Part shown: in pieces, positions 12,008 through 43,691 of the stretch
How positions within the stretch are numbered: the stretch's first letter is position 1
Layout: each line of letters starts with the position of its first letter
NCBI GenBank assembly: GCA_965661285.1
Contig: CBFIDD010000001.1
Coordinates: forward strand, 224,001 to 288,000
DNA: 64,000 bases
Direction: 5' to 3'
Origin: Poseidonia sp.
GTDB taxonomy: Archaea > Thermoplasmatota > Poseidoniia > Poseidoniales > Poseidoniaceae
Notes under the pieces: generated by a model
The model's database searches: none
Told to the model about the DNA's origin: nothing
The model's input: the letters and a program-made list of their open reading frames with translations, nothing else
Made by a program: the position numbers and the translations under genes

Positions 12008-15000
12008 ATGAGAACCAGAGTTTTTGCCTTGGTGGCCTTGTTGTTGCTCACGTCACTGTCAGCCGTTCTTGACCAGCGTTCACCGTTCGTCCTTGACCAA
12101 GATAAGGTGTCAATGGAGTCCGGAAACAACAGCACGGGATGTGGGTACAACACCACCTACTTTTCGGTCTATGGCTCCTATGCCCCCTTCCCAGTCTACG
12201 ATGGTGATACCCTCAACACAACCGTTTCAACCAGCTGCAACATGCTGAACCAAACCATGACGGCCTCCTACGGTCTCTCGAACTCGACCACCTACCTTGC
12301 CAGTGGTAACTGGAGTTGGACAGCGACGACTCTCAGTGATAACCTCTCGTTTGAGGTGGCCAACATCCCTGCGGGGACCTATGTTCTCACGGTAGACGTT
12401 TACTACGGTTCGAATTATACCTCCCTGACGAGTTACAACACCACCATCACCGTGTTGACAAGTAACAACAGCGGGGGGGGCACCGGTTGTGGGTATGATG
12501 TGAACAACACCATGCTGATGGCGTACGCTGGGATGTACATGTACGACAACGACCCGTTCACCTCCTGGATCAGCACCTCTTGCGATCTCATCGGCACCCC
12601 GATGCTTATCACGGTGAACATCACGAACACATCGGGCACCATGGCCTCGACCAACTTCACCTACAATGGTTCAACCACCGGCTTCAGCGGCAACTTCAAC
12701 CTGTCCGCTGGCACCTTGAGTGCGGGTAACTACTCCTTCGCAGCCTCGCTATACTATTACCACAACACATCTGGATGGACTCATGTTGAAACGGACAGCA
12801 CCACCATCACGGTGTTGGCGTACACCTCTACCTCCTGCGGATTCCAAGCCTCCTCGGCCAGCGTCTTCGCCTACTCCACTTACGGCGGCTACGATGTCGG
12901 TGAAGACTTCGAAGGTGTCATCGCAACCTACTGTGCCATCTACAACGCCACCATGATGCTCGACTGGACGCTTCATGACGATGATAACAACCAGTCCGTT
13001 GACTCAGGCACCTACAATTGGACAGCACAGCAAACTCAGGAAGTGCACTATGTCAACTCAACTGCGCTCTCGACTGCTACAGTTGGCAACTATTCCTTCC
13101 ACGTTGAGTATTCCTGGTATAACAACTCCTCGATGAGCGTTGAGGTATTGGACACAGACAGCGACAGCTTCTGGGTCTACAACTACACCAGCGGTGGCGG
13201 CAACCAATCCAGCGGTTGTGGCAGCGACCCCGTGCATGCAACAGTCTATGCGTACTCCGACTTCTACGCCTACGACCTCGGCGAGGATTTCGACGGAACC
13301 ATCTCCACGTACTGTGCCATGACCAACGAAAGCATGATGCTTGATTGGGTGCTTTACGACGATGACAACAACCAATCCATCGATTCGGGTTCCTTTAACT
13401 GGACGGCCCAGCTAACCAGTGAGCAGCACAATGTTACGTCCACTTCGCTTGCCACGGCTGCAGAAGGAAACTACTCCTTCACCGTTGAATTTTCCTGGTA
13501 CAACACCTCGTCAATGGCCTGGGAGGTGCTCGATAGCGACACTGACGGCTTCTTTGTGATGAACATGAGCAGCGGTGGCGGCAACCACAGCAGCGGTCCT
13601 TCCTGCTCCGTTTACGCATGGTCCGACTATTACTGGTTCTCCGTTGGAGACAATTTTACCGGTGAAGTGGACTCGTATTGTTCCTTGACCAACGAGACGC
13701 TGATGATCGAGTGGGCCATCCTCAACACCGTCACCAACATGACGGTGGATGCAGGAAACATAAGCTGGACCACCACCATGTTCTCCGAGACGCAAAACGT
13801 CTCCTCCACGGCTCTCGCCAACCAAAACGCTGGCAACTACTCCTTCGCAGTCATGCTCTCGTGGTACAACACCTCGTCAATGGCATGGGAACTTCTTGAC
13901 AGCGACAGTGATCCGTTCTCCATCTACAGCGGGAGCACCGGCGGTGGCGGCAACCACAGCACAGGATGTGGAAGCGACCTTGCCTACACCATGGTGATGG
14001 CCTACGCGTCCTCCTCCTACAACGTCGGCGACACCCTCTATGGCGCCATCGACACCTACTGCCCGGTCAGCGGTGAAGCCTTCATGGTGGACTGGTCGGT
14101 TTATTCGTGGGACGCCGGTTACAACCTGACCCAAAGTACCTTTTTGTGGACGGCCAACAACAGCACCCACTACCACAATGTCGAAGTCACCAACCTGTCA
14201 GAAGGCAACTGGTCCCTCATTGCAACCCTGTACCACTACAACACCTCGAGCATGAGCTATGACGGAATTGACCAATCCATGGCAAACTTCTCGGTGTTCA
14301 ACACAACGCAACCCTCCATCGACGGGGTTGTGGCGGCTAGCATGACAGAATCGAATTACGCCAGCGGCGACACCGTTTCGTGGTTCATCGAAAGTTCCGA
14401 ACTTGTCATGGGCGAGGACTACCACCTCGAGTGGGCCGTCGTTGAAATCATGAGCAACACCACCGTTGCTACTGGCAACGCTTCGTGGACTGCCTACAAC
14501 AACATGAGTGGCGAACAAGGCAACCTTTCCGGTCTTTCCGATGGCATGTACTGCCTCGATGCTTCCCTGTACCAGCAGGTGGACACATACGCCTACTGGG
14601 TGGACTACGACTACGCTTGCTTCAACGTGGGCAGCAGCACCTCCGGTAATCACAGCGACGCCTTCATGAACATCGACTTCGACTACCAGATCACTCAAAT
14701 TGATGACGACACCATCGGTCTCACTTACACCGTCAACAACTCAGGTGACTGGGCGGGCAACTTCTACTACCAAGCCTATCTGAACCCTGGCGATATCATC
14801 GTTGACCACGTTTATGGCAACGTGAGCATCAATGGCATGGGCGTCCACACCGACAGCGTGACCTACGACATCGACGAACTTACGGACGGTGCAGAGGTTT
14901 GCATTGAAATGGCCTTTGTGAACATCAACGGCACCACGGAAGCAGAAGGCAACGAGTGCCTCACCATCGACATCGATAATGGCTCCAATACAGGCAATGA

Positions 15001-15664
15001 AACCGGCAACAACACCGGCGGAAACACCACCATCGACACCGACGGCGACGGCGTGTTCGACCAAGACGACCTCTGCCCCAACACCGCTGCTGGCGTGATG
15101 GTCGACGAGGACGGTTGCGAGGTCATTACGGCCCCAACCGATAATGACGGCGACGGCGTTATGGACGCTGATGATCTCTGTCCCAACACCCCTGCCGGCA
15201 CCACGGTGGACGCCACGGGGTGCGAGGTCGTTGACCCTGTGGACAACAACACGGACAACAACACCGGCAACACCAACGTTGCACCGAGCATCACCAACGT
15301 ATCGATCACCCCCCTCCTGCCGGAGATGGGCGACACCCTGACCTGCGCCTTCACGGCCAGCGACGACAACGGCGATACGCTCGCTGGCACCTATGTGTGG
15401 ACCGTGAACGGTACCATTGTAGCCGAACTTTCCAACACACTAAGCGATGGCTTCGATGTTGGCGACACTGTCACCTGCACGGTCTTGGTCACCGACGGAA
15501 CGAATTCCACCGAAGGAACGGCGACCACCGTCATCTTGCCCGCAGGCACCAACGATATTGTTGATGACCTCGAAGAGGGCGGCCTGCTGCCCTCGGTAGG
15601 CACCATCGGTACGCTCGTGGCCATCGCCTTCGGTGTTGGTCTGACCCGCCGCCAGGACGACTGA
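12008..15664 (+). CDS. Large secreted/surface glycoprotein with internal repeats and TSP3-like Ca-binding repeats
   Basis: Signal peptide; ~130-aa repeats (GCG...YAYS...TYC); DTDGDGVFDQDDLCPNT; C-terminal LPSVG-TM-RR anchor. Confidence 0.85.
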   Translation: MRTRVFALVALLLLTSLSAVLDQRSPFVLDQDKVSMESGNNSTGCGYNTTYFSVYGSYAPFPVYDGDTLNTTVSTSCNMLNQTMTASYGLSNSTTYLASGNWSWTATTLSDNLSFEVANIPAGTYVLTVDVYYGSNYTSLTSYNTTITVLTSNNSGGGTGCGYDVNNTMLMAYAGMYMYDNDPFTSWISTSCDLIGTPMLITVNITNTSGTMASTNFTYNGSTTGFSGNFNLSAGTLSAGNYSFAASLYYYHNTSGWTHVETDSTTITVLAYTSTSCGFQASSASVFAYSTYGGYDVGEDFEGVIATYCAIYNATMMLDWTLHDDDNNQSVDSGTYNWTAQQTQEVHYVNSTALSTATVGNYSFHVEYSWYNNSSMSVEVLDTDSDSFWVYNYTSGGGNQSSGCGSDPVHATVYAYSDFYAYDLGEDFDGTISTYCAMTNESMMLDWVLYDDDNNQSIDSGSFNWTAQLTSEQHNVTSTSLATAAEGNYSFTVEFSWYNTSSMAWEVLDSDTDGFFVMNMSSGGGNHSSGPSCSVYAWSDYYWFSVGDNFTGEVDSYCSLTNETLMIEWAILNTVTNMTVDAGNISWTTTMFSETQNVSSTALANQNAGNYSFAVMLSWYNTSSMAWELLDSDSDPFSIYSGSTGGGGNHSTGCGSDLAYTMVMAYASSSYNVGDTLYGAIDTYCPVSGEAFMVDWSVYSWDAGYNLTQSTFLWTANNSTHYHNVEVTNLSEGNWSLIATLYHYNTSSMSYDGIDQSMANFSVFNTTQPSIDGVVAASMTESNYASGDTVSWFIESSELVMGEDYHLEWAVVEIMSNTTVATGNASWTAYNNMSGEQGNLSGLSDGMYCLDASLYQQVDTYAYWVDYDYACFNVGSSTSGNHSDAFMNIDFDYQITQIDDDTIGLTYTVNNSGDWAGNFYYQAYLNPGDIIVDHVYGNVSINGMGVHTDSVTYDIDELTDGAEVCIEMAFVNINGTTEAEGNECLTIDIDNGSNTGNETGNNTGGNTTIDTDGDGVFDQDDLCPNTAAGVMVDEDGCEVITAPTDNDGDGVMDADDLCPNTPAGTTVDATGCEVVDPVDNNTDNNTGNTNVAPSITNVSITPLLPEMGDTLTCAFTASDDNGDTLAGTYVWTVNGTIVAELSNTLSDGFDVGDTVTCTVLVTDGTNSTEGTATTVILPAGTNDIVDDLEEGGLLPSVGTIGTLVAIAFGVGLTRRQDD

Positions 15665-37301: not shown

Positions 37302-38846
37302 TCAGTCGGCGCACGAGCCATCGTCAGGGAGGAATTGGAATTGATGCGGCATGGTCGTAACGTCCGTGTAATCGTCCTCGTCCAAGCACACGATGGTCAT
37401 CTCCATCGGCGCTCTGCCCATCATCGGTGGCAGGCAGTCGTAGTACGCCACAACGGCCCTCATCACTTCGCCAAGCGAAGCCGTGCCGTGGGATACGGTC
37501 ACGATGTGCCTGACCTGCATCGATGTGATGCTCGGATACGCCCTGCTGTAGGGTTGTGATTTGGCCAACTCGAGCATCGTTTTGGCGAGCTGCGGCGTGG
37601 CATCCTCGCCCGACCACTTCAGCCTCTTGACGGGATTGCTCATCCACGGCGCTGGCGACTGCAACTCCAGCGTTTGACCAAGCCATCTTGCACACCTTCC
37701 GACGACCTTCTGTCTGAGACTTTCCCTGACCGCCAGCACGGTGTTGGGGCCATGGAGGGCAGGGGCAAGCCTAAGCAGGTCACCGTGGACGATGTGGAGC
37801 TTGAACGCTTCACCCAACAGCCTGTAGGTCCTTTTTGGAAACCCGCCGAGCAAGAGTGAAGGATGGTCGAGCAACCACCTCAGGTAGTCGGCGTAAGCGC
37901 CCGGCGGCCACGCATGCAACGGAGGTGTGGGCCCGAGAAAGGCGGGACCCGGCTCGTGTTCGTCGTGAAACCTTACCCAGTCCCTCATCCACTGTTCATG
38001 TGTCGGTGCATCGGGATGAACGGGCGGGGTGGGTTCGCTGCTGAGCAGGTCGGCCACCGCTTCGGGCGACATCGACACTTCGGGCATGGTCGTCCAAAAC
38101 CAAGGCTGCATGGCGTCGTCCCAGTCTTTCTGCGCGAGGGGACCTTCCACACCGTGATGCACCTCAAACACGCTGGCGCTGTGGGTTTGCATGTTGCCGT
38201 AGAAGTCGGGCGACATCCACTCAACGGGCCCTTTGTTCACGAGCATGGAACCGTTCTCCAGGTGAAGCACGGCCTCACCGCTTGAGGAAAACCACGGATG
38301 TTCCCCGTCAAGGAAATGGGCGTGCTTGAGGTCGAGCACCACGAGACCGCCTTCCCTGATCTTGTGCACGTAAGCACCGATGAGGTGGGGAAACGCTCTG
38401 TCGTCGCCCGTGCTGTGCGGGTCCAACCACTCGAGCCAGTCCACGTAGAGGATGTCCACGGGCGGCGAGGCGGTCAGTTTCGAGAAGGCCTCGTGTTGAA
38501 TGTGAACCTGCCAGTGGGGTGTGGAAAGCGCCGCCTTCCTGTAGACGGCGTGGCCCTGCGACGTGTCTGAAATCCTTTGCCAGGTCGCCATCCCCGCCTC
38601 GTTGGCGTTGATGCCCCAACCATCGGGCGTGTACTCGCTGTACTCCACCACGACATGGATGAAGGGATGACCTGCATCGCTGACCAAACCAAAACTGGCG
38701 TGGTGGTGCATGGCGGCTGCGGGATGGACGATGACCAGCGGCCTTCCCTCAGGCGGCTCGATGGGCAAACCGATGCCAGCGGGCGGCCCGTAAGCCACGC
38801 ACCCACCGAATCCTTGGGGTGCTCTTCTGCTAGCTGCCATGCTCAT
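37302..38846 (-). CDS. Hypothetical protein: degenerate methyltransferase-like N-half, macrodomain-like C-terminus
   Basis: TGATG overlap with upstream stop; VDILYVD...KIREGGLVVLD; LHIVHGDL...TIVCLDEDDY; 22/22 Arg codons AGR. Confidence 0.7.
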   Translation of the reverse strand: MSMAASRRAPQGFGGCVAYGPPAGIGLPIEPPEGRPLVIVHPAAAMHHHASFGLVSDAGHPFIHVVVEYSEYTPDGWGINANEAGMATWQRISDTSQGHAVYRKAALSTPHWQVHIQHEAFSKLTASPPVDILYVDWLEWLDPHSTGDDRAFPHLIGAYVHKIREGGLVVLDLKHAHFLDGEHPWFSSSGEAVLHLENGSMLVNKGPVEWMSPDFYGNMQTHSASVFEVHHGVEGPLAQKDWDDAMQPWFWTTMPEVSMSPEAVADLLSSEPTPPVHPDAPTHEQWMRDWVRFHDEHEPGPAFLGPTPPLHAWPPGAYADYLRWLLDHPSLLLGGFPKRTYRLLGEAFKLHIVHGDLLRLAPALHGPNTVLAVRESLRQKVVGRCARWLGQTLELQSPAPWMSNPVKRLKWSGEDATPQLAKTMLELAKSQPYSRAYPSITSMQVRHIVTVSHGTASLGEVMRAVVAYYDCLPPMMGRAPMEMTIVCLDEDDYTDVTTMPHQFQFLPDDGSCAD

Positions 38847-39394
38847 CAGATGCACCTCGGATGATAGAGCGGGACAACCCTGAAGATTCTCTTGGTTTGC
38901 CTCTCAAGTCTGCTGTACGCCTCAGCCTTGCACACACCGCCTGACGTAGCCGACTTGGCCGTGTCGTAGATGGTATCACCGTGCAAGGTGATGATGTGAG
39001 CCGTGCACAACTTCCCCGAAGGTTGCGGGTCGGAAGGCGGGTCCTTGGAGTAGAAGCAGAGGAAGAAGAGGTCGTCGTAGGTCACCAATTCGTCCACGAA
39101 GTATTCCAGTCTCCTGACATCGTTGTTGCAATAGGCCAACTGCATCCCGTAGGGCTTTAGCGCCTCCGACCATGTGTGGGGTGCCTGTGAATTGGTCACC
39201 GCCTTGAAGTCCTCTGGCGTGGTGTTCGCTCCCGTGGCGTTGGCCACCATCGACAGCGTCGTGGCGACGCACGAAGGACCGACCTGCTTGATGTGCTCAA
39301 TGGTCACGTCGCCAAAGAAGGGGCCGTGGGGTTCGCCGTGTCTCTCGCTGTACCACAATGGTGCGGAGGGGTTCGGTCTCCAAGTGACGGTCAT
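38846..39394 (-). CDS. Peptidase C39-like (papain-fold) protein
   Basis: QVGPSCVATTLSMV (Q-x4-C), AHIITL (His), IYDT (Asp); GGAGG SD and ATGA overlap; 9/9 Arg codons AGR. Confidence 0.75.
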   Translation of the reverse strand: MTVTWRPNPSAPLWYSERHGEPHGPFFGDVTIEHIKQVGPSCVATTLSMVANATGANTTPEDFKAVTNSQAPHTWSEALKPYGMQLAYCNNDVRRLEYFVDELVTYDDLFFLCFYSKDPPSDPQPSGKLCTAHIITLHGDTIYDTAKSATSGGVCKAEAYSRLERQTKRIFRVVPLYHPRCI

Positions 39395-39618
39395 TCCCAT
39401 TCCTCCCTGAAAGCGTCGTCGAACTCTTGCCACTGCTTTTCGTCGTCGGGCAAGGGTTGTTCGGTCAGGGCTTTCATGATGCAATCTGGGCACGAGCACG
39501 GTCTCTCGATGTACTCGCTCATGTCTTGCACCCTCAGTTTGGTCAACTCGTTCTGGAGCCTGAAAAACTCCATCACCAGCATCATCAGTTTCGTCCATTC
39601 GTTCTCATTTTTCTTCAT
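39391..39618 (-). CDS. Small protein with CxCxxC motif
   Basis: AAGGAG SD; stop overlaps next start; 4/4 Arg codons AGR. Confidence 0.7.
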   Translation of the reverse strand: MKKNENEWTKLMMLVMEFFRLQNELTKLRVQDMSEYIERPCSCPDCIMKALTEQPLPDDEKQWQEFDDAFREEWE

Positions 39619-39634
39619 CTTTTCATCTCCTTGT

Positions 39635-40456
39635 TCATTGATACTCAAAATCCTCGGGTCTTCCACCCGGCCATTCCCTCTCCATCTCTTCCACATACGC
39701 CTGCCTGTTCTGCGCCTCCTCGTACTGCATCACCCAGATGTGCTGGTCCTCCAAACAGAGGTGAATGAGCGACAAGAGGTTGGAAGGAAAGGTGCCCTCC
39801 AGGTGGTCGATGCAAAAATACTGGTCGTGGGTGTAGACCGTGGTTTGGCCCCCGTATTCGGGAATGTGTTCGGGGCAGGTCCAGTACTCGCCCAGCGAGT
39901 GAGCGACGTTGTTGGCGTACATGTAAGGGGGCGGCGCCCACTTCCACGCCATCGGTTTTGACGCAGCGGCCTTCTTCCTTGCCTGGTATGCGACAAAGGT
40001 CCCGGGCGCACCCCACTTCTCGAGGTCAAGACAGAAATCAAAGGCAAATTCGTGCCCGTTCTTCCCCTGAACGGTGATGGTGTAGCCGTCCATGGAAACG
40101 GTAGGATGGTCATGCACCGTCTCCGCTAAGGCAAGCCAGTGCTCTCTTTGCACCCAATCCTCGTGCGTGTCGATTTCAGGCATCAGGAAATGAAGCCCGA
40201 TGTCCATTGAGGTCAAGCACAACTCCCAGCTGGGCCATGTGTCCCACCTCGTCTTGTTCGCGATGTTGTGCTGGTTGTAGGCCGCAAAGATGCCAAAGAA
40301 GGCTGCAGGCTCGTCCAAGTTGGCGTTATGGTCAATCAGTTCGTCGGGATGGGTGTAGCCGTTGGCCACAAACCACTCCCCTTCTCTGCCAACCACGAAG
40401 GTATCGGGCTTGGCGTGGTGGTTCTTCTCGTTGTTCTGTTCATGTTCGTTGTTCAT
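39635..40456 (-). CDS. Hypothetical protein
   Basis: CAGGAG SD just downstream of tRNA-Arg(GCG); 7/7 Arg codons AGR. Confidence 0.75.
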   Translation of the reverse strand: MNNEHEQNNEKNHHAKPDTFVVGREGEWFVANGYTHPDELIDHNANLDEPAAFFGIFAAYNQHNIANKTRWDTWPSWELCLTSMDIGLHFLMPEIDTHEDWVQREHWLALAETVHDHPTVSMDGYTITVQGKNGHEFAFDFCLDLEKWGAPGTFVAYQARKKAAASKPMAWKWAPPPYMYANNVAHSLGEYWTCPEHIPEYGGQTTVYTHDQYFCIDHLEGTFPSNLLSLIHLCLEDQHIWVMQYEEAQNRQAYVEEMEREWPGGRPEDFEYQ

Positions 40457-40501
40457 AGGTCTCGCTCCTGTGTTGCGTTTATGCACCGCCGTGCGTCGAA
40501 T

Positions 40502-40576
40502 TGGCTGGGGCACCGGGATTCGAACCCGGGTCAAAGGTCTCGCAAACCAATATGCTCTCCACTACACCATGCCCCA
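40502..40576 (-). tRNA. tRNA-Arg(GCG), CCA encoded, two U-U mismatches in anticodon stem
   Basis: TGGGGCA/TGCCCCA acceptor, loop TT-GCG-AG, T-arm CCGGG-TTCGAAT-CCCGG, A20, G73, CCA. Confidence 0.85.
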
Positions 40577-40588
40577 ATGGTCGGGAAC

Positions 40589-40663
40589 TGGCAGAGGCAC
40601 CCGGATTCGAACCGGGGTCCAGGGATCCGAAGCCCCTGATGCTATCCGCTACACCATGCCTCC
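40589..40663 (-). tRNA. tRNA-Arg(TCG), CCA encoded
   Basis: GGAGGCA/TGCCTCT acceptor, AGGGG-CTTCGGA-TCCCT anticodon arm, canonical T-arm, A20, G73, CCA. Confidence 0.92.
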
Positions 40664-40666
40664 TTG

Positions 40667-40812
40667 CAGTTCCCAACGAAACGGCGGTTGCACTCAGGGT
40701 GTCAAACGCCGGTTCGCTTGTGCCGTGAATCGTTGGATCAACGGCGATGTCGGGAGGGTCGCTTGGTGTCATTTCGGACGCTGTTGTGTTCATCCATCAT
40801 GCTCGACCCTCC
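40667..40812 (-). promoter_or_regulatory. Putative attenuator-like structured leader
   Basis: Alternative helices 40736-45:40722-31, 40722-37:40671-85 and 40667-77:40580-90; SD 40804-12 complementary to 40753-61. Confidence 0.6.
40738..40800 (-). CDS. Putative Arg-sensing leader peptide MMDEHNSVRNDTKRPSRHRR
   Basis: GGAGG 7 nt before ATG; Arg codons CGA, CGA, CGA, CGC, CGT, four of them in the last 7 codons. Confidence 0.7.
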   Translation of the reverse strand: MMDEHNSVRNDTKRPSRHRR

Positions 40813-40839
40813 GGAGTAAAGTGTGGAATGGGCATCAAA

Positions 40840-40847
40840 TATTTAAA
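40840..40847 (-). promoter_or_regulatory. TATA box of the leader/tRNA-Arg operon
   Basis: TTTAAATA on the minus strand, ~28 nt upstream of the leader SD. Confidence 0.65.
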
Positions 40848-40997
40848 CCTTTGTGCTACTTTTCATATACTCATCCCACATGAACGCATCATATTTTCCC
40901 AAATCCTCCCCCCAGAACGAGGAAAAGACGCGCAAAAACGCTTGTAACCGACAATGAAGGGTGTATCATTATAACCTCAACGGCCCGAGGTTCGTTC

Positions 40998-43691
40998 ATG
41001 ACAACTGGAATGTCACCCCGAAACATGCTGATTGCCGGAATCGTCTTGGTTCTGCTGAACGTTGCTGCGCTTGCTCCATTGGCCACCGGTGCCGTTGAAG
41101 ACGTGGTGGACGAAACCTTCGAAGATTACTCCAAGGACGCCGTCTGCGCCAACGATGACTGTACCGAAGCCGAGGAAGACTGGGCTTCGTCCACGGCCCA
41201 GCGCGACTACTACGCGTGGGACGTCACCAACCTCGCTGAGGTCATGGGCGGTGCGGCACCGATCACCGAAAAGGTCGGACCCTTCACCTACGACATCACC
41301 ACCACCCGCACCATCAACAACTACGATGCAAATGCCGGTGAATTGACCTACAACGCCGTGAAGACCTTCGAGTGCGCTGCCGACAGCGCCGTCTCCTGCG
41401 ACACCGAGGTCACCCAACTCAACATCCTCTTCCAGGCCCAAGTGATCGGTGCGACCGGTATGGCCATGGGCGGCATCATGGACTTGACCAAGGTCGGGTT
41501 CGCCGTTCAAATGGTCCTTCAGGACATGAACACCACGCAGGCCGGCACCGCCAGTGTGGGCGACATGTGCATGGCCGACATGAACGGCGACGGAACGCCC
41601 GATGCGATTCCATGCCACTCTTGGGCCAACGGTGGACAAGCTGCACTCGCAGTGTCCGAAACCGGCATGGGCATCAAGATGATGAACAACGATGACACTC
41701 TCAACACCACCATGGATTCGGGTGATGCCTTTTCCGAGGGCAGCCTCGACGCCGCCATGACCGGCACGTCCCACCCAGCCGACCCGAACTTCAACATCTC
41801 GTTGATGACGCCGCTCGGCTCTGTGGCCTTCATGGGCCTGGGCGCACCAGAGACGCTAATCTCTGACGTGTTCGCTGACCCTTCCAATTCCACCGTGATG
41901 GCACGAGCCACCACCTATGGCTATCTTGCGATGGCCGACGCCACCACGCCCGACTTCTACACGACCTTTGTTCGAGACTGGGCCATGTACGCAACGGTGG
42001 GTGCCAGTTTCCAGGCTTACGGCGGCGGCAGCGACGCCAACCTCACGAACAACGACGACCTTGCCATGCGACTCCACAACCTTGTCGGCGTCGACATGAC
42101 CGGCGTGAACGCCGTTGGCCTGATGACCGCTGGCCACATGACCGACACCCCAACGGGGATTGTCGCCACCAACGCTGAGGGCACATCCTTCGGCATGGCC
42201 GCTTTCCTCGGCATGGAAGCCGGTGACGTGATGACCTCCTACAACATGACCGCAGAGCAGTACGGCGCTGTAGCAAGTTGGGTCGGAGGATGGGCCACCT
42301 CCCAATCATCTGCACAACTCGGCCTCCTTGGCGGCGTGGGCACCATGAACGCAGAACAATTTGTGAACCAAACCTTCGGAGGCATGAGCCCCGTTGGCGA
42401 CCCCTACCTCGAGCGCTCACTGAACCTCGGCGGCGCCTGGAGCAGCCTGTACGGCAACGAACCGGTTGACTTGACACAGGAACAATCCGCCAAGATCCTC
42501 TACGACCCCATGATTGGACTGACCACGCGAGGCGGTGCAACCCTGTTCATTTACGGCGAGTTGGCCGGCATGACCCCGCCGATTGACTTCACCACGATGG
42601 AATCCGGCACCCCTATGGTCTGGGACGCAGCCACCATCGGCGCCCTCTACGGCATCGACACCAACGCTGCCACCGCCCTGCGAGCCCTCATCATGGGACC
42701 CATCTACGGCACGACGGATGATTCGTTCGTGCCCGACTACCTCATGTCCACGTTTGGCACGACGCCCTACCTCACGCAATCCTTCAACAACTGGCTCATC
42801 GGCTGGCACGACCCCGTCAACGCCTTCCTCGCCACGGGCAACCCGATGGACATGAGCGTCGGGTGGTCATCGCTTGAAAGCAACGCCACCTACTTTGGTT
42901 CGGGCGGCATCGCTAACGGCGACGGCACCAACTACACGATGTGTACGGGTGAAGTGGCCGGATGCGACAAGGGCGAAACCCTGGCTGAAGACGGTTCAAC
43001 GCAACTTTCGTGGCGCAACGACGCCATGATGGCCGCCACCTACGGCCTCATCATGCCCGAGCCCCTCGTCGGCACCACCGGTGGCTTCCTAACCGGCACC
43101 GAGGACAAGGTTGACGTCAGCGGCTACGTGATTGCGGACGTTGAGCGAACCGGCGACAGCACGCTGAAGGGTATCCCCGTCTATGACTACGAAGCCAAGC
43201 AGGACGCACCCGGACGGAGCATCCAAGCCAACCTCATGGAGACCTTCAGTCTGCTCGACGCCACCCCCGGCGCCCTCCCCGTGTACTTCTCCACGGAGAT
43301 CACCATGCAGGCTGAACAACTCTCCGGCCTCATCATCGCTGGCTCCTCGACCAACACCTTCTACCTTGACAACCGTGCACACACGGACCAAGCCAGCACG
43401 CCAACGATGGACGACCTAGATCCCGTGTTCGAGATTCAGTCCTCCTCGATGATCGAAGACGACGACGCAGAAGAGATGGAAAGCGCCATCGTGCAAAACC
43501 AAAACAGTTTGACCTATTGGACGAACTTTGACTCGTGGATTGACTTCGTCACCCTCCTGTTCTGGGTCGGTGGCATCGCCATGATCGGTATCGGCATGGT
43601 TGGCGCAGCCAACACACCCGCCGAGGACGAAGGCAAGGACTTCTCAGCCTCTGCTGGGGACGAAGCTGCTCCAGAAACTGTTCAAGAGTAG
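40998..43691 (+). CDS. CD36/scavenger-receptor-class-B-like membrane protein
   Basis: TM helices at both termini; WDVTNLAEVMGGAAPITEKVGPFTY, WLIGWHDP, KGIPVYDY resemble CD36-family blocks. Confidence 0.65.
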   Translation: MTTGMSPRNMLIAGIVLVLLNVAALAPLATGAVEDVVDETFEDYSKDAVCANDDCTEAEEDWASSTAQRDYYAWDVTNLAEVMGGAAPITEKVGPFTYDITTTRTINNYDANAGELTYNAVKTFECAADSAVSCDTEVTQLNILFQAQVIGATGMAMGGIMDLTKVGFAVQMVLQDMNTTQAGTASVGDMCMADMNGDGTPDAIPCHSWANGGQAALAVSETGMGIKMMNNDDTLNTTMDSGDAFSEGSLDAAMTGTSHPADPNFNISLMTPLGSVAFMGLGAPETLISDVFADPSNSTVMARATTYGYLAMADATTPDFYTTFVRDWAMYATVGASFQAYGGGSDANLTNNDDLAMRLHNLVGVDMTGVNAVGLMTAGHMTDTPTGIVATNAEGTSFGMAAFLGMEAGDVMTSYNMTAEQYGAVASWVGGWATSQSSAQLGLLGGVGTMNAEQFVNQTFGGMSPVGDPYLERSLNLGGAWSSLYGNEPVDLTQEQSAKILYDPMIGLTTRGGATLFIYGELAGMTPPIDFTTMESGTPMVWDAATIGALYGIDTNAATALRALIMGPIYGTTDDSFVPDYLMSTFGTTPYLTQSFNNWLIGWHDPVNAFLATGNPMDMSVGWSSLESNATYFGSGGIANGDGTNYTMCTGEVAGCDKGETLAEDGSTQLSWRNDAMMAATYGLIMPEPLVGTTGGFLTGTEDKVDVSGYVIADVERTGDSTLKGIPVYDYEAKQDAPGRSIQANLMETFSLLDATPGALPVYFSTEITMQAEQLSGLIIAGSSTNTFYLDNRAHTDQASTPTMDDLDPVFEIQSSSMIEDDDAEEMESAIVQNQNSLTYWTNFDSWIDFVTLLFWVGGIAMIGIGMVGAANTPAEDEGKDFSASAGDEAAPETVQE

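Follow-up and report, generated by a model that had tools for sequence, protein, structure and literature searches.

An open reading frame (ORF) of only 20 codons, five of which are arginine codons of the CGN box (N, any nucleotide), precedes two tRNA-Arg genes in a 64,000-nucleotide (nt) stretch of the genome of Poseidonia sp. (assembly GCA_965661285.1, contig CBFIDD010000001.1, positions 224,001 to 288,000; hereafter the window). This raises the question of what such an ORF does in front of tRNA genes. Poseidonia is a Marine Group II archaeon and thus belongs to an abundant marine order that is uncultured; the host genome comprises 1.98 Mb in 8 contigs with a GC content of 57%. Leader-peptide sensing is a textbook bacterial mechanism, of which we know almost no documented archaeal examples. 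The comparative data presented here suggest that the ORF heads an order-wide Marine Group II operon, which joins a CGN-rich leader ORF to spare tRNA-Arg genes that decode CGN and to protein genes that are free of CGN codons. We favour, with moderate confidence, the view that the ORF is a translated regulatory leader, which gauges the capacity of the cell to decode the CGN arginine box.

A CGN-rich ORF, spare tRNA genes and CGN-free protein genes

The initial annotation had described an arginine-rich ORF of 20 amino acids (aa) on the minus strand of the window, with the Shine-Dalgarno (SD) sequence GGAGG 7 nt upstream, and direct reading as well as the ORF list confirmed this description (Table 1). 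The ORF reads ATG ATG GAT GAA CAC AAC AGC GTC CGA AAT GAC ACC AAG CGA CCC TCC CGA CAT CGC CGT TGA, and its CGN codons (CGA three times, CGC and CGT) cluster in the last third. At the genome-wide rate of 0.0496 CGN per codon, as derived from a crude ORF set, the presence of 5 CGN codons among 19 has a P-value of 0.002. The leader GGAGG begins at position -12, which is also the peak position of GGAGG among 1521 crude ORF starts of this genome. GAGG at -11 was found for 129 of these 1521 starts against a background of about 12, and SD motifs are thus in general use; the 3' end of the 16S rRNA reads ...GGATCACCTCCT. A TATA-like box is located about 47 nt 5' of the leader ATG. A comparable A/T octamer is present at the equivalent place in every Poseidonia leader and, as judged by eye, about 50 nt before the ATG in other genera. 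Based on the known geometry of archaeal TATA boxes and transcription starts, transcription is predicted to start about 22 nt 3' of the TATA-like box, near position 40817 and just before the SD. The TATA-like box of the other tRNA genes in this genome is about 30 nt away from the gene, so that their leaders are short. In many relatives, the interval from the TATA box to the predicted start (about 40818-40839, minus strand) holds a short inverted repeat GGTG...CACC that was noticed by eye (e.g. GGTGATGCAATAAATGCACC) and that might represent a repressor site.

The location of the ORF upstream of tRNA genes was likewise borne out, as tRNA-Arg(UCG) and tRNA-Arg(GCG), here named tRNA1 and tRNA2, follow on the same strand. 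The complete order is TATA box, SD, CGN-rich ORF, structured spacer, tRNA1, tRNA2, dn273, p75, dn185 and p517, the last four being protein genes whose translation is presumably coupled. Upon reading of the trailer of tRNA2, neither a T-run nor room for a separate promoter plus SD was found, and the hairpin between tRNA2 and the SD of dn273 is present in all trailers that were compared.

Both operon tRNAs are spare, divergent decoders of CGN codons. The 44 tRNA calls of the genome include a second tRNA-Arg(UCG) at C4:26930 and a second tRNA-Arg(GCG) at C5:27244. These housekeeping copies are 77 nt long each and have ordinary promoters. The operon tRNAs are 76% identical to each other and thereby closer to each other than to the housekeeping copies, and the operon tRNA-Arg(GCG) deviates from its housekeeping counterpart at positions 37 and 38 of the anticodon loop. 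In the five other genomes checked, housekeeping-type UCG copies were found elsewhere in all five and GCG copies in four. Outside the window, at C1:313805-313897 of genome G000 (minus strand), ARAGORN reported a 93-nt 'tRNA-???' with a two-letter anticodon, which may be intron-containing or aberrant.

None of the four protein genes that follow the tRNA genes contains a CGN codon, and their arginine residues are encoded by AGA or AGG (AGR; Table 1). By contrast, the genome-wide arginine codons are CGN in 89% and AGA/AGG in 10.7% of the cases, as counted on a crude set of ATG-initiated ORFs of at least 250 aa in six frames. This purge cannot be attributed to an avoidance of CpG or GC, because NCG codons are plentiful in the purged genes (18 in dn273 and 53 in p517), and because their GC content at third codon positions (GC3) of 0.75 is typical of the genome. 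In a scan of the genome no other long ORF with a CGN-free signature was detected, the remaining matches being short, probably spurious frames and one ORF of 168 aa. The latter, at C1:110803-111309 of G000 (plus strand) and thus outside the window, has 21 AGR and 3 CGN codons with a GC3 of 0.77, and it is the sole other ORF of more than 150 aa with a strong AGR bias. p75 was recognised in a different frame from a longer ORF that overlaps it, because relatives have stops in the longer ORF. This 250-aa ORF (38846-39598, minus strand) was dismissed as an artefact, since the stops of relatives fall within its first ~65 codons.

Table 1. Features of the leader, the operon and its flanks (positions within the window)
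Feature	Position	Strand	Remarks
TATA-like box	40847-40840	-	TTTAAATA; direct reading
SD	40812-40808	-	GGAGG; within the P1 5' arm
P1 5' arm	40804-40812	-	GGAGGGTCG; includes the SD
Leader ORF	40800-40738	-	20 codons + TGA; peptide MMDEHNSVRNDTKRPSRHRR
P1 3' arm	40753-40761	-	CGACCCTCC; covers codons 14-16
Hairpin P2	40722-40745	-	minimum free energy fold; 5' arm holds CGC-CGT-TGA (last Arg codons and stop)
Hairpin P3	40677-40716	-	near-invariant apical sequence GAGTGCAACCGC
P4 5' arm	40667-40674	-	GGGAACTG; leader -11 to -4, just 5' of tRNA1
tRNA1, tRNA-Arg(UCG)	40663-40589	-	75 nt; 53 bits; CCA encoded
P4 3' arm	40583-40590	-	CA of the tRNA1 CCA plus GTTCCC of the inter-tRNA spacer
tRNA2, tRNA-Arg(GCG)	40576-40502	-	75 nt
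Trailer hairpin	40483-40494	-	GCACGGCGGTGC; between tRNA2 and the SD of dn273
dn273	39635-40456	-	273 aa; family unassigned; CGN 0, AGR 7
p75	39391-39618	-	75 aa; CxC..C motif; CGN 0, AGR 4
dn185	38846-39400 (start ~39400/39394)	-	~183 aa; start overlaps the p75 stop; CGN 0, AGR 9
p517	37302-38846	-	514 aa; start overlaps the dn185 stop; CGN 0, AGR 22
CD36-like flanking gene	40998-43691	+	897 aa; CGN 13, AGR 0
p275 (flanking gene)			CGN 6, AGR 0

The leader ORF and its operon in Poseidonia and other genera

Of 60 Poseidonia species genomes (metagenome-assembled, with a completeness of 55-94%), 31 contained the leader region according to a DNA search. The 29 loci with tandem tRNA genes yielded 28 distinct leaders, L009 and L010 having been excluded for their different arrangement. 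Frame 1 is open in all 28 distinct leaders, with a stop at codon 21 or 22, and two leaders that have lost the first ATG retain the second, in-frame ATG. Frames 2 and 3 have acquired differing stops in different lineages. The encoded peptide drifts, except for Arg9, Asn/Asp10 and the C-terminal (K/H)-R-R(-R). Synonymous changes remain within the CGN box (CGC/CGT, CGA/CGG/CGT), and the R-H-R core is kept through synonymous changes in all three of its codons, for example CGA CAT CGC versus CGT CAC CGC.

The downstream purge is equally persistent. Over 25 Poseidonia loci, including the window, the counts are 0 CGN and 189 AGR codons for dn273, 0 and 38 for p75, and 0 and 68 for the portion of dn185 that was fetched, as compared to 95 CGN and 9 AGR in the divergent upstream gene. 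In 12 further stretches, p517 showed 3 CGN and 193 AGR codons (L080 contributes 2 of these CGN codons and L076 one, the other ten stretches none) and dn185 showed 0 and 84, while p275 had 16 CGN and 4 AGR.

A profile of p517 located this family in 69 of 301 sampled Poseidoniales genomes, which represent 9 of 26 genera and 2 of 3 families. We fetched 18 loci from 8 further genera, two of which were incomplete, so that 16 were analysed. All 16 contain a tRNA-Arg (UCG or ACG), with or without tRNA-Arg(GCG), which is followed by homologous proteins with 0 CGN codons and few exceptions. The exceptions concern the p517-like gene of L108 (2 CGN), L114 (1 CGN), the genes of L116 described below and a few mechanical ORFs that overlap a tRNA or gene. 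The purge in these genera is independent of genome GC3, which ranges from 0.24 to 0.8, and the flanking genes use CGN normally. An SD-like motif followed by an ATG and an ORF of 12-30 codons with at least 3 CGN codons precedes the first operon tRNA in 15 of the 16 loci from the eight genera (MRGPKFNILFSLMRTLRHRS, MQIGIFTRLGRHRSRVRSYAH, MTEKHSWKYRYRRYFRSRPIR, MHSVFGRSDRHRGETDRGHRR and MCQEKFIRGGRLRRRVRFNECTFEAL are examples). The identical test was positive for 104 of 5000 random 300-nt windows of the genome (2.1%) and for 1 of 42 other genomic tRNAs. Across genera the leader ORFs vary in peptide, length (15-26 codons) and stop (TGA, TAG or TAA), and the distance from the stop to the tRNA in the other genera ranges from 17 to 108 nt. 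Taken over 46 leaders, CGN accounts for 182 of 939 codons (19%), as compared to 5% genome-wide, and 27 of the 42 AGR codons are codon 2, where AGG forms part of the helix P1' described below. CpG falls on codon positions 1-2 in 182 cases versus 46 in the other phases. Since related sequences are not independent, these counts over 46 leaders are descriptive and should not be read as tests.

A rearranged variant of the operon was found by a DNA search with the variant leader in only two genomes of the genus, G012 and G006; 17 other matches of this search were discarded, as they reflected mere tRNA similarity to the main-type tRNA1. The variant leader includes a TATA box, the SD GGGGTGA and the ORF MTNYIWSNHFKRRRS (with CGA CGC CGC), whose stop codon TAA lies 17 nt before the tRNA. 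This ORF is followed by tRNA-Arg(ACG), genes for a 116-aa protein with an RGKGYG motif and a 262-aa protein, p71, dn176, dn246, tRNA-Arg(UCG) and a p517-like gene. All proteins of the variant have 0 CGN codons, and the gene upstream has 16 CGN and 3 AGR.

The ORF, its SD and its CGN codons are thus conserved at homologous loci, as the initial annotation had expected of a genuine leader: the ORF is kept by all 28 Poseidonia leaders, by 15 of the 16 loci from other genera and by the rearranged variant. Because the SD and a CGN-rich ORF recur across genera while peptides, lengths and stops differ, the leader ORF is very probably translated. The part of the initial annotation that proposed a leader peptide with regulatory arginine codons therefore stands as far as a conserved, SD-led and CGN-rich ORF heading a tRNA transcript is concerned in the comparative data, but not with regard to classical attenuation, which is considered further below. 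That annotation did not mention that the tRNA genes decode the codons in which the ORF is rich, that these genes are spare copies, or that the protein genes lack these codons.

Some side observations were made on these operon versions. tRNA-Arg(ACG) genes are present in L083 (1361-1435), L084 (1340-1414), L111 (3373-3445), L119 (3318-3390) and L120 (717-789); to our knowledge, this anticodon is uncommon in archaea, where GCG is the rule and an A34 deaminase is missing. L106 (7053-7334), L121 (6902-7192) and L122 (6868-7161) have an extra CGN-free ORF of 93-97 aa (MSNDKYLAWYLEF.../MSDSKYLDAYLKF...) after the p517-like gene. With regard to a mobile-element or viral origin, a scan of viral contigs with one leader motif gave 0 matches, and PHROGs and PADLOC gave no matches for 5 proteins.

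The functions of the operon proteins were approached by sequence and structure comparisons. No family was assigned to dn273, the 250-aa ORF, p517, p275 and p586 at E-values of up to 5 in Pfam and up to 0.1 in NCBIfam, and the AlphaFold model of dn273 was poor, with a mean predicted local distance difference test (pLDDT) score of 52.7. The predicted model of p517 has a pLDDT of 85.7, and its N-terminal ~230 aa match the fold of class-I S-adenosylmethionine-dependent methyltransferases (best Foldseek E-value 1e-5). The TM-scores are low because the match covers only part of the protein. Among the Foldseek matches are RNA and tRNA methyltransferases, and a weak atlas lead for p517 is Methyltransf_17 at 0.88. 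A PDB sequence search returned nothing for p517 and only chance-level matches for dn185 (E ~0.08). For dn185, the atlas leads are DUF261, which is annotated on 32% of one cluster's members, and Peptidase_C39, with a share of 15% in another cluster; dn185 may thus be a papain/C39-like peptidase, which is a weak lead. A protein of ~145 aa that occurs in other genera gave GNAT matches with E-values of 0.03-0.04, which are below the Pfam cut-offs.

This gene set bears some resemblance to peptide-modification clusters, in view of the methyltransferase fold, the weak C39/DUF261 leads and the sub-threshold GNAT matches. One could therefore envisage that the ORF encodes a functional small peptide, either a precursor or substrate of the operon enzymes of the type known from ribosomally synthesised and post-translationally modified peptides, or a small basic partner or antidote, and that no sensor is involved. 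The conserved R-H-R / K-R-R core and the invariable position of the ORF at the head of the operon would fit this idea. However, all of the family assignments are weak leads, and the peptides of 15-26 residues are poorly conserved outside the arginine cluster. Moreover, a functional peptide provides no reason for the use of CGN, and never AGR, at the conserved arginine positions, and it leaves unexplained why tRNA-Arg genes are located between the precursor and the enzymes and why the enzymes avoid CGN. We consider a functional peptide improbable.

Several features adjoin the operon or lie elsewhere in the window. The flanking plus-strand gene, which is divergent from the leader promoter region, encodes a membrane protein with a Pfam CD36 match (E 7.6e-15, residues 56-173). 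CD36 is an unusual family for an archaeon. Throughout the genus this gene is found in synteny with the tRNA operon, and its arginine codon usage is normal. A gap of 247 nt follows p517. For the genes between 26800 and 33230, the GC content is 0.41-0.52 and GC3 is 0.39-0.58, far below the values of ~0.6 and ~0.7, respectively, in the remainder of the window; this stretch may be an acquired island. An ORF of 1218 aa at 12008-15664 (plus strand) has just 5 arginine codons (3 CGN and 2 AGR).

Structure of the leader RNA

The 157-nt leader has a minimum free energy of -58.1 kcal/mol (z=-4.08), and 0 of 200 shuffled sequences were as stable. Its fold contains the three hairpins P1, P2 and P3. That the SD region GGAGGGTCG is the exact 9-nt complement of CGACCCTCC inside the ORF, as had been noted initially, proved correct by reading. 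A fourth helix, P4, which the initial annotation had not noted, connects the nucleotides just 5' of tRNA1 with the CA of its CCA end and the spacer behind it. All named structures were counted on an alignment of 26 sequences that included tRNA1 and the spacer. Overall, 82.9% of the cells were paired as compared to 73.6% in shuffled alignments and 35-47% in slid controls, and the covariation score was 0.324 versus 0.172 in shuffles, a value reached by 0 of 500 shuffles. In P3 (alignment columns 107-116/137-146) 5 of 9 pairs were altered on both sides, with 85.9% of the cells paired. The corresponding values for P4 were 6 of 9 pairs and 88%, as is to be expected of a leader-trailer processing stem of a pre-tRNA, and its arms have been swapped wholesale in subclades (GGGAAC/GTTCCC, TCAATT/AATTGA and CAAACC/GGTTTG). 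The register of P2, as read from the alignment, varies between clades. Based on these helix counts, the leader is at once the carrier of an ORF and a structured pre-tRNA leader.

The pairing of the initiation region is more variable. In the 11 sequences of the subclade to which the window belongs, P1 is complete, with 9 of 9 pairs, in 8 sequences. Two others form 8 of the 9 pairs and the last one forms 6, and compensatory changes were noted. In the other 15 Poseidonia sequences the same 3' arm pairs with AUG(U bulged)-GAGGGGC instead, so that the AUG is buried in a helix P1' of 8-12 out of 12 pairs, again with compensations such as GAGGGACUG/CAGUCCCUC; these sequences keep an upstream SD-like GAGGG/GGGG. 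The initiation region is thus paired with codons 14-17 in both Poseidonia clades through different 5' arms, which supports the idea of a regulated leader. Across genera, in contrast, minimum free energy folds have 1 to 13 of 16 nucleotides of the initiation region paired, and sequestration of both SD and AUG is therefore not general. Of the SD-sequestering helix proposed initially, it can be said that P1 is real in the subclade of the window, but that other clades pair AUG-proximal codons or neither element. More widely shared is the location of the terminal CGN codons and the stop inside a hairpin, which is observed in most genera.

RNAalifold, when applied to all 27 leaders, recovered just fragments of P1 and P3, because the helix registers differ between clades. 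A scan of positions 39500-42000 against Rfam with E-values of up to 1 returned the two tRNAs and a sub-threshold sul1 match across tRNA1, the spacer and tRNA2 (26.4 bits versus a cut-off of 36.2), and the leader was unmatched. A reading of ATGATGG...CTGA as a box C/D sRNA was discarded by eye, since the motifs lie much too far apart and clade B has not kept them.

Several observations weigh against a regulatory leader ORF, among which are also the negative results on terminators and ribosome footprints in the next paragraph but one. In all Poseidonia leaders, 137 nt separate the ATG from the tRNA, and their alignment is gap-free even outside the ORF. This constancy of length reaches past the ORF and, by itself, is no proof of coding. 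Several amino acid changes (e.g. a Ser for the Pro of codon 15, or the series Arg, Cys, Trp at codon 17) follow the compensation of helices and not the function of a peptide, and RNA structure and coding overlap in the leader such that they are hard to separate. The SD-sequestering P1 is limited to one subclade. The sixteenth distant locus, L118, has the ORF MTTSAYNKKFLRRKIA with just 2 CGN codons and a weak SD, and the genes of L116 (genus g15) are AGR-rich but not CGN-free (3 CGN/9 AGR and 6 CGN/12 AGR). The transcription start near 40817 was placed by means of the TATA-like box. Lastly, metatranscriptome contigs of relatives with 90-98% identity cover 40516-40710 (X3) and 40623-40773 (X1), and the relatives' contigs X1 and X2 run from tRNA2 into the start of the relative's dn273. 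These contigs are compatible with a co-transcript, which is a weak hint that concerns relatives only, as contigs do not reveal starts, ends or strand, stretches without cover carry no meaning, and DNA carry-over is possible; the share of sampled words did not exceed 0.05 in any RNA run.

The points on structure would be expected if the leader were non-coding, with helices that serve tRNA processing, and if the ORF and its 'SD' were by-products of G-rich and C-rich helix arms. Indeed, P1/P1', P3 and P4 covary, P4 encloses tRNA1 and hides its CCA end in the manner expected of a processing stem, and the constant length and some of the codon changes can be explained by pairing. In addition, the 3' arm CCCUCC resembles an anti-SD, so that any partner of this arm will look like an SD. 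A non-coding leader does not, however, account for the fact that 15 of the 16 loci from other genera, as well as the variant, have an SD and a CGN-rich ORF despite unrelated leader lengths, folds and stops. Nor does it account for the codon phase of the CpG dinucleotides (182 versus 46), or for a frame 1 that is never stopped whereas frames 2 and 3 are stopped repeatedly. Furthermore, clade B retains the upstream SD-like GAGGG though this is not the main helix arm, and the CGN purge downstream points to CGN decoding as the theme of the operon. We therefore regard a purely structural leader as very unlikely.

A classical transcription attenuator, in which the position of the ribosome selects a terminator or an antiterminator before the tRNA genes, appears equally implausible to us. 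Transcription and translation are coupled in archaea, the terminal CGN codons and the stop are located in the 5' arm or loop of P2 and are followed by the strong hairpin P3, and in the window CGCCGTT begins the 5' arm of P2 as well as the 3' arm of P3, all of which would suit such a switch. Intrinsic termination in archaea depends on oligo-T, however, and the Poseidonia leaders contain no oligo-T terminator or conserved T-run after P3 or anywhere else between the ORF and the tRNA. When the footprint of a stalled ribosome was simulated by masking, the probabilities of P3 and P4 remained unchanged in 26 Poseidonia sequences. Among 22 sequences across genera, about 5 changed the folding of P3, P4 or the acceptor stem, with mixed directions and no conserved switch, and the hairpin layout differs in the leaders of other genera. 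The suggestion of attenuation in the initial annotation is not upheld by these results.

A possible gauge of CGN decoding and its relation to known systems

The CGN codons of the operon are confined to an SD-led ORF at its head, spare decoders of CGN come next, and the proteins are free of CGN. This is the design predicted for a sensor of supply. From this anatomy, its conservation, the codon pattern and the helices we infer a ribosome-stalling gauge. The inference extends to the translation of the ORF, to the stalling itself, and to the route and sign of the response. As long as Arg-tRNA that reads CGN is abundant, a single ribosome on the nascent leader would reach the UGA and depart. Upon its departure the initiation region would close, through P1 in the subclade of the window and through the AUG-proximal helix in others. 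P1 and P1' would thus restrict initiation to the short time before their 3' arm is transcribed, and the leader would be translated in one shot. When CGN decoding fails, the ribosome would stall on the clustered CGN codons, keep P1 and P2 open and occupy the 5' end of the precursor. The stalling may then raise the yield of the precursor, and thereby supply replacement tRNAs that decode CGN together with proteins that can be made without CGN decoding. As to the output route, we prefer protection or stabilisation of the 5' end, or an altered processing of the precursor, over the switching between terminator and antiterminator. An effect of occupancy is favoured because the terminal CGN codons and the stop are located in a hairpin, and because neither a terminator nor an effect of the ribosome footprint was found.

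The avoidance of CGN is total, and this points to conditions under which CGN decoding is lost almost completely and not just mildly slowed. Such a loss could consist in the destruction or inactivation of the housekeeping tRNA-Arg(NCG). The operon may be a rescue kit or a homeostat, or it may itself cause the loss. A more specific possibility, to which we assign a rather low but appreciable probability, is a module for conflict or self-resistance at the level of a codon box. Housekeeping CGN-decoding tRNA-Arg would then be inactivated, which would bring nearly all translation to a halt, the operon tRNAs would be insensitive replacements, the CGN-free proteins would be made during the shutdown, and the leader ORF would be the sensor of the damage. 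Candidate agents are the operon's own proteins (p517, dn185 and, in some versions, the GNAT-like protein) or a ribotoxin of viral or rival origin. The divergent tRNAs would then be like the resistant target copies in antibiotic gene clusters. If true, this would be the first tRNA-level system that combines target duplication with a stalling sensor, and the first leader-peptide sensor characterised in archaea.

If the leader ORF is indeed a gauge of CGN decoding, it would imply that archaea regulate through the stalling of ribosomes on short ORFs, and that the supply of tRNA can be under feedback from its own codons. It would also imply that CGN decoding is repeatedly threatened in Marine Group II archaea, be it by starvation, a ribotoxin or a virus, and seriously enough for a dedicated back-up module to be kept. 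Absolute codon avoidance is a simple and searchable signature, which could reveal codon-specific modules in other genomes. In the literature searched, we found no account of this element or of a CGN-free operon with tRNA-Arg genes in Poseidoniales, and no earlier description of a logic in which sensor codons are read by tRNAs encoded immediately downstream while the proteins of the operon are purged of that codon box.

The predicted leader is most readily compared with the bacterial attenuators trpL, hisL, leuL, thrL and pheL. Like these, it has an SD-led ORF at the 5' end that is rich in the codons whose supply it would report, while the peptide otherwise drifts. It differs in being archaeal and in that the genes thought to be regulated encode the tRNAs that read the sensor codons and unassigned proteins instead of biosynthetic enzymes. 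Moreover, no terminator/antiterminator pair was found, and the downstream bias is absolute, with zero CGN, rather than a preference. In the leaders of ermC (ermCL), cat and cmlA, a stalled ribosome reports impaired translation, the SD is contained in a helix, and the stalling frees the SD of the downstream gene. A short leader ORF, on which ribosomes are proposed to stall, and an SD helix would be shared by the present case. Here, however, the hidden SD or AUG is that of the leader itself and the next genes are tRNAs, so that the release of a downstream SD, which defines the erm and cat systems, is not seen, and the stalling signal would be the lack of a tRNA rather than a drug. A ribosome stalled near the 5' end can stabilise an mRNA in B. 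subtilis. The bacterial T-box binds uncharged tRNA directly, without a ribosome, and controls synthetase or biosynthesis genes. The Poseidonia leader would resemble it as an RNA that monitors the status of a specific tRNA, while no Rfam family matched the leader.

Other systems share with the operon its relation between codons and tRNAs. The toxin MazF-mt9 is reported to cleave tRNA-Lys(UUU), whereupon ribosomes stall at the corresponding codon and transcripts that lack this codon stay translatable (PMC6620280, PMC7033543). The CGN-free genes of the operon would be such translatable transcripts. In the present case, by contrast, no toxin was identified, the genes that lack the codons share a cluster with spare tRNAs and the putative sensor ORF, which has no described counterpart in MazF systems, and a whole four-codon box is avoided. 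Likewise, virus-encoded tRNAs are reported to replace host tRNAs that are destroyed by anticodon nucleases (PMC10264068, PMC11555353, PMC11464382). The operon tRNAs are similar to these as extra divergent copies that may substitute for vulnerable housekeeping tRNAs, but they are chromosomal, syntenic across an archaeal order and accompanied by a putative sensor ORF and codon-purged genes. The bldA tRNA-Leu(UUA) is reported to control TTA-containing genes in Streptomyces (PMC2000904), and sinR is presented as a sensor based on TCN serine codons (PMC3862929). As in these two cases, expression would depend on how available a single tRNA or class of codons is, and no protein or RNA would be dedicated to the sensing. 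In the bldA and sinR systems the sensitive codon is located within the target genes, whereas here it is purged from the targets and concentrated in a leader ORF beside the tRNA genes. Finally, the theory of selective charging holds that regulatory leader codons should be sensitive to starvation, whereas isoacceptors of low usage stay charged (Elf & Ehrenberg 2005, PMC1183508). The operon would follow this design, as its sensor would use the sensitive codons of the CGN box and its response genes the synonymous codons for which readers are available.

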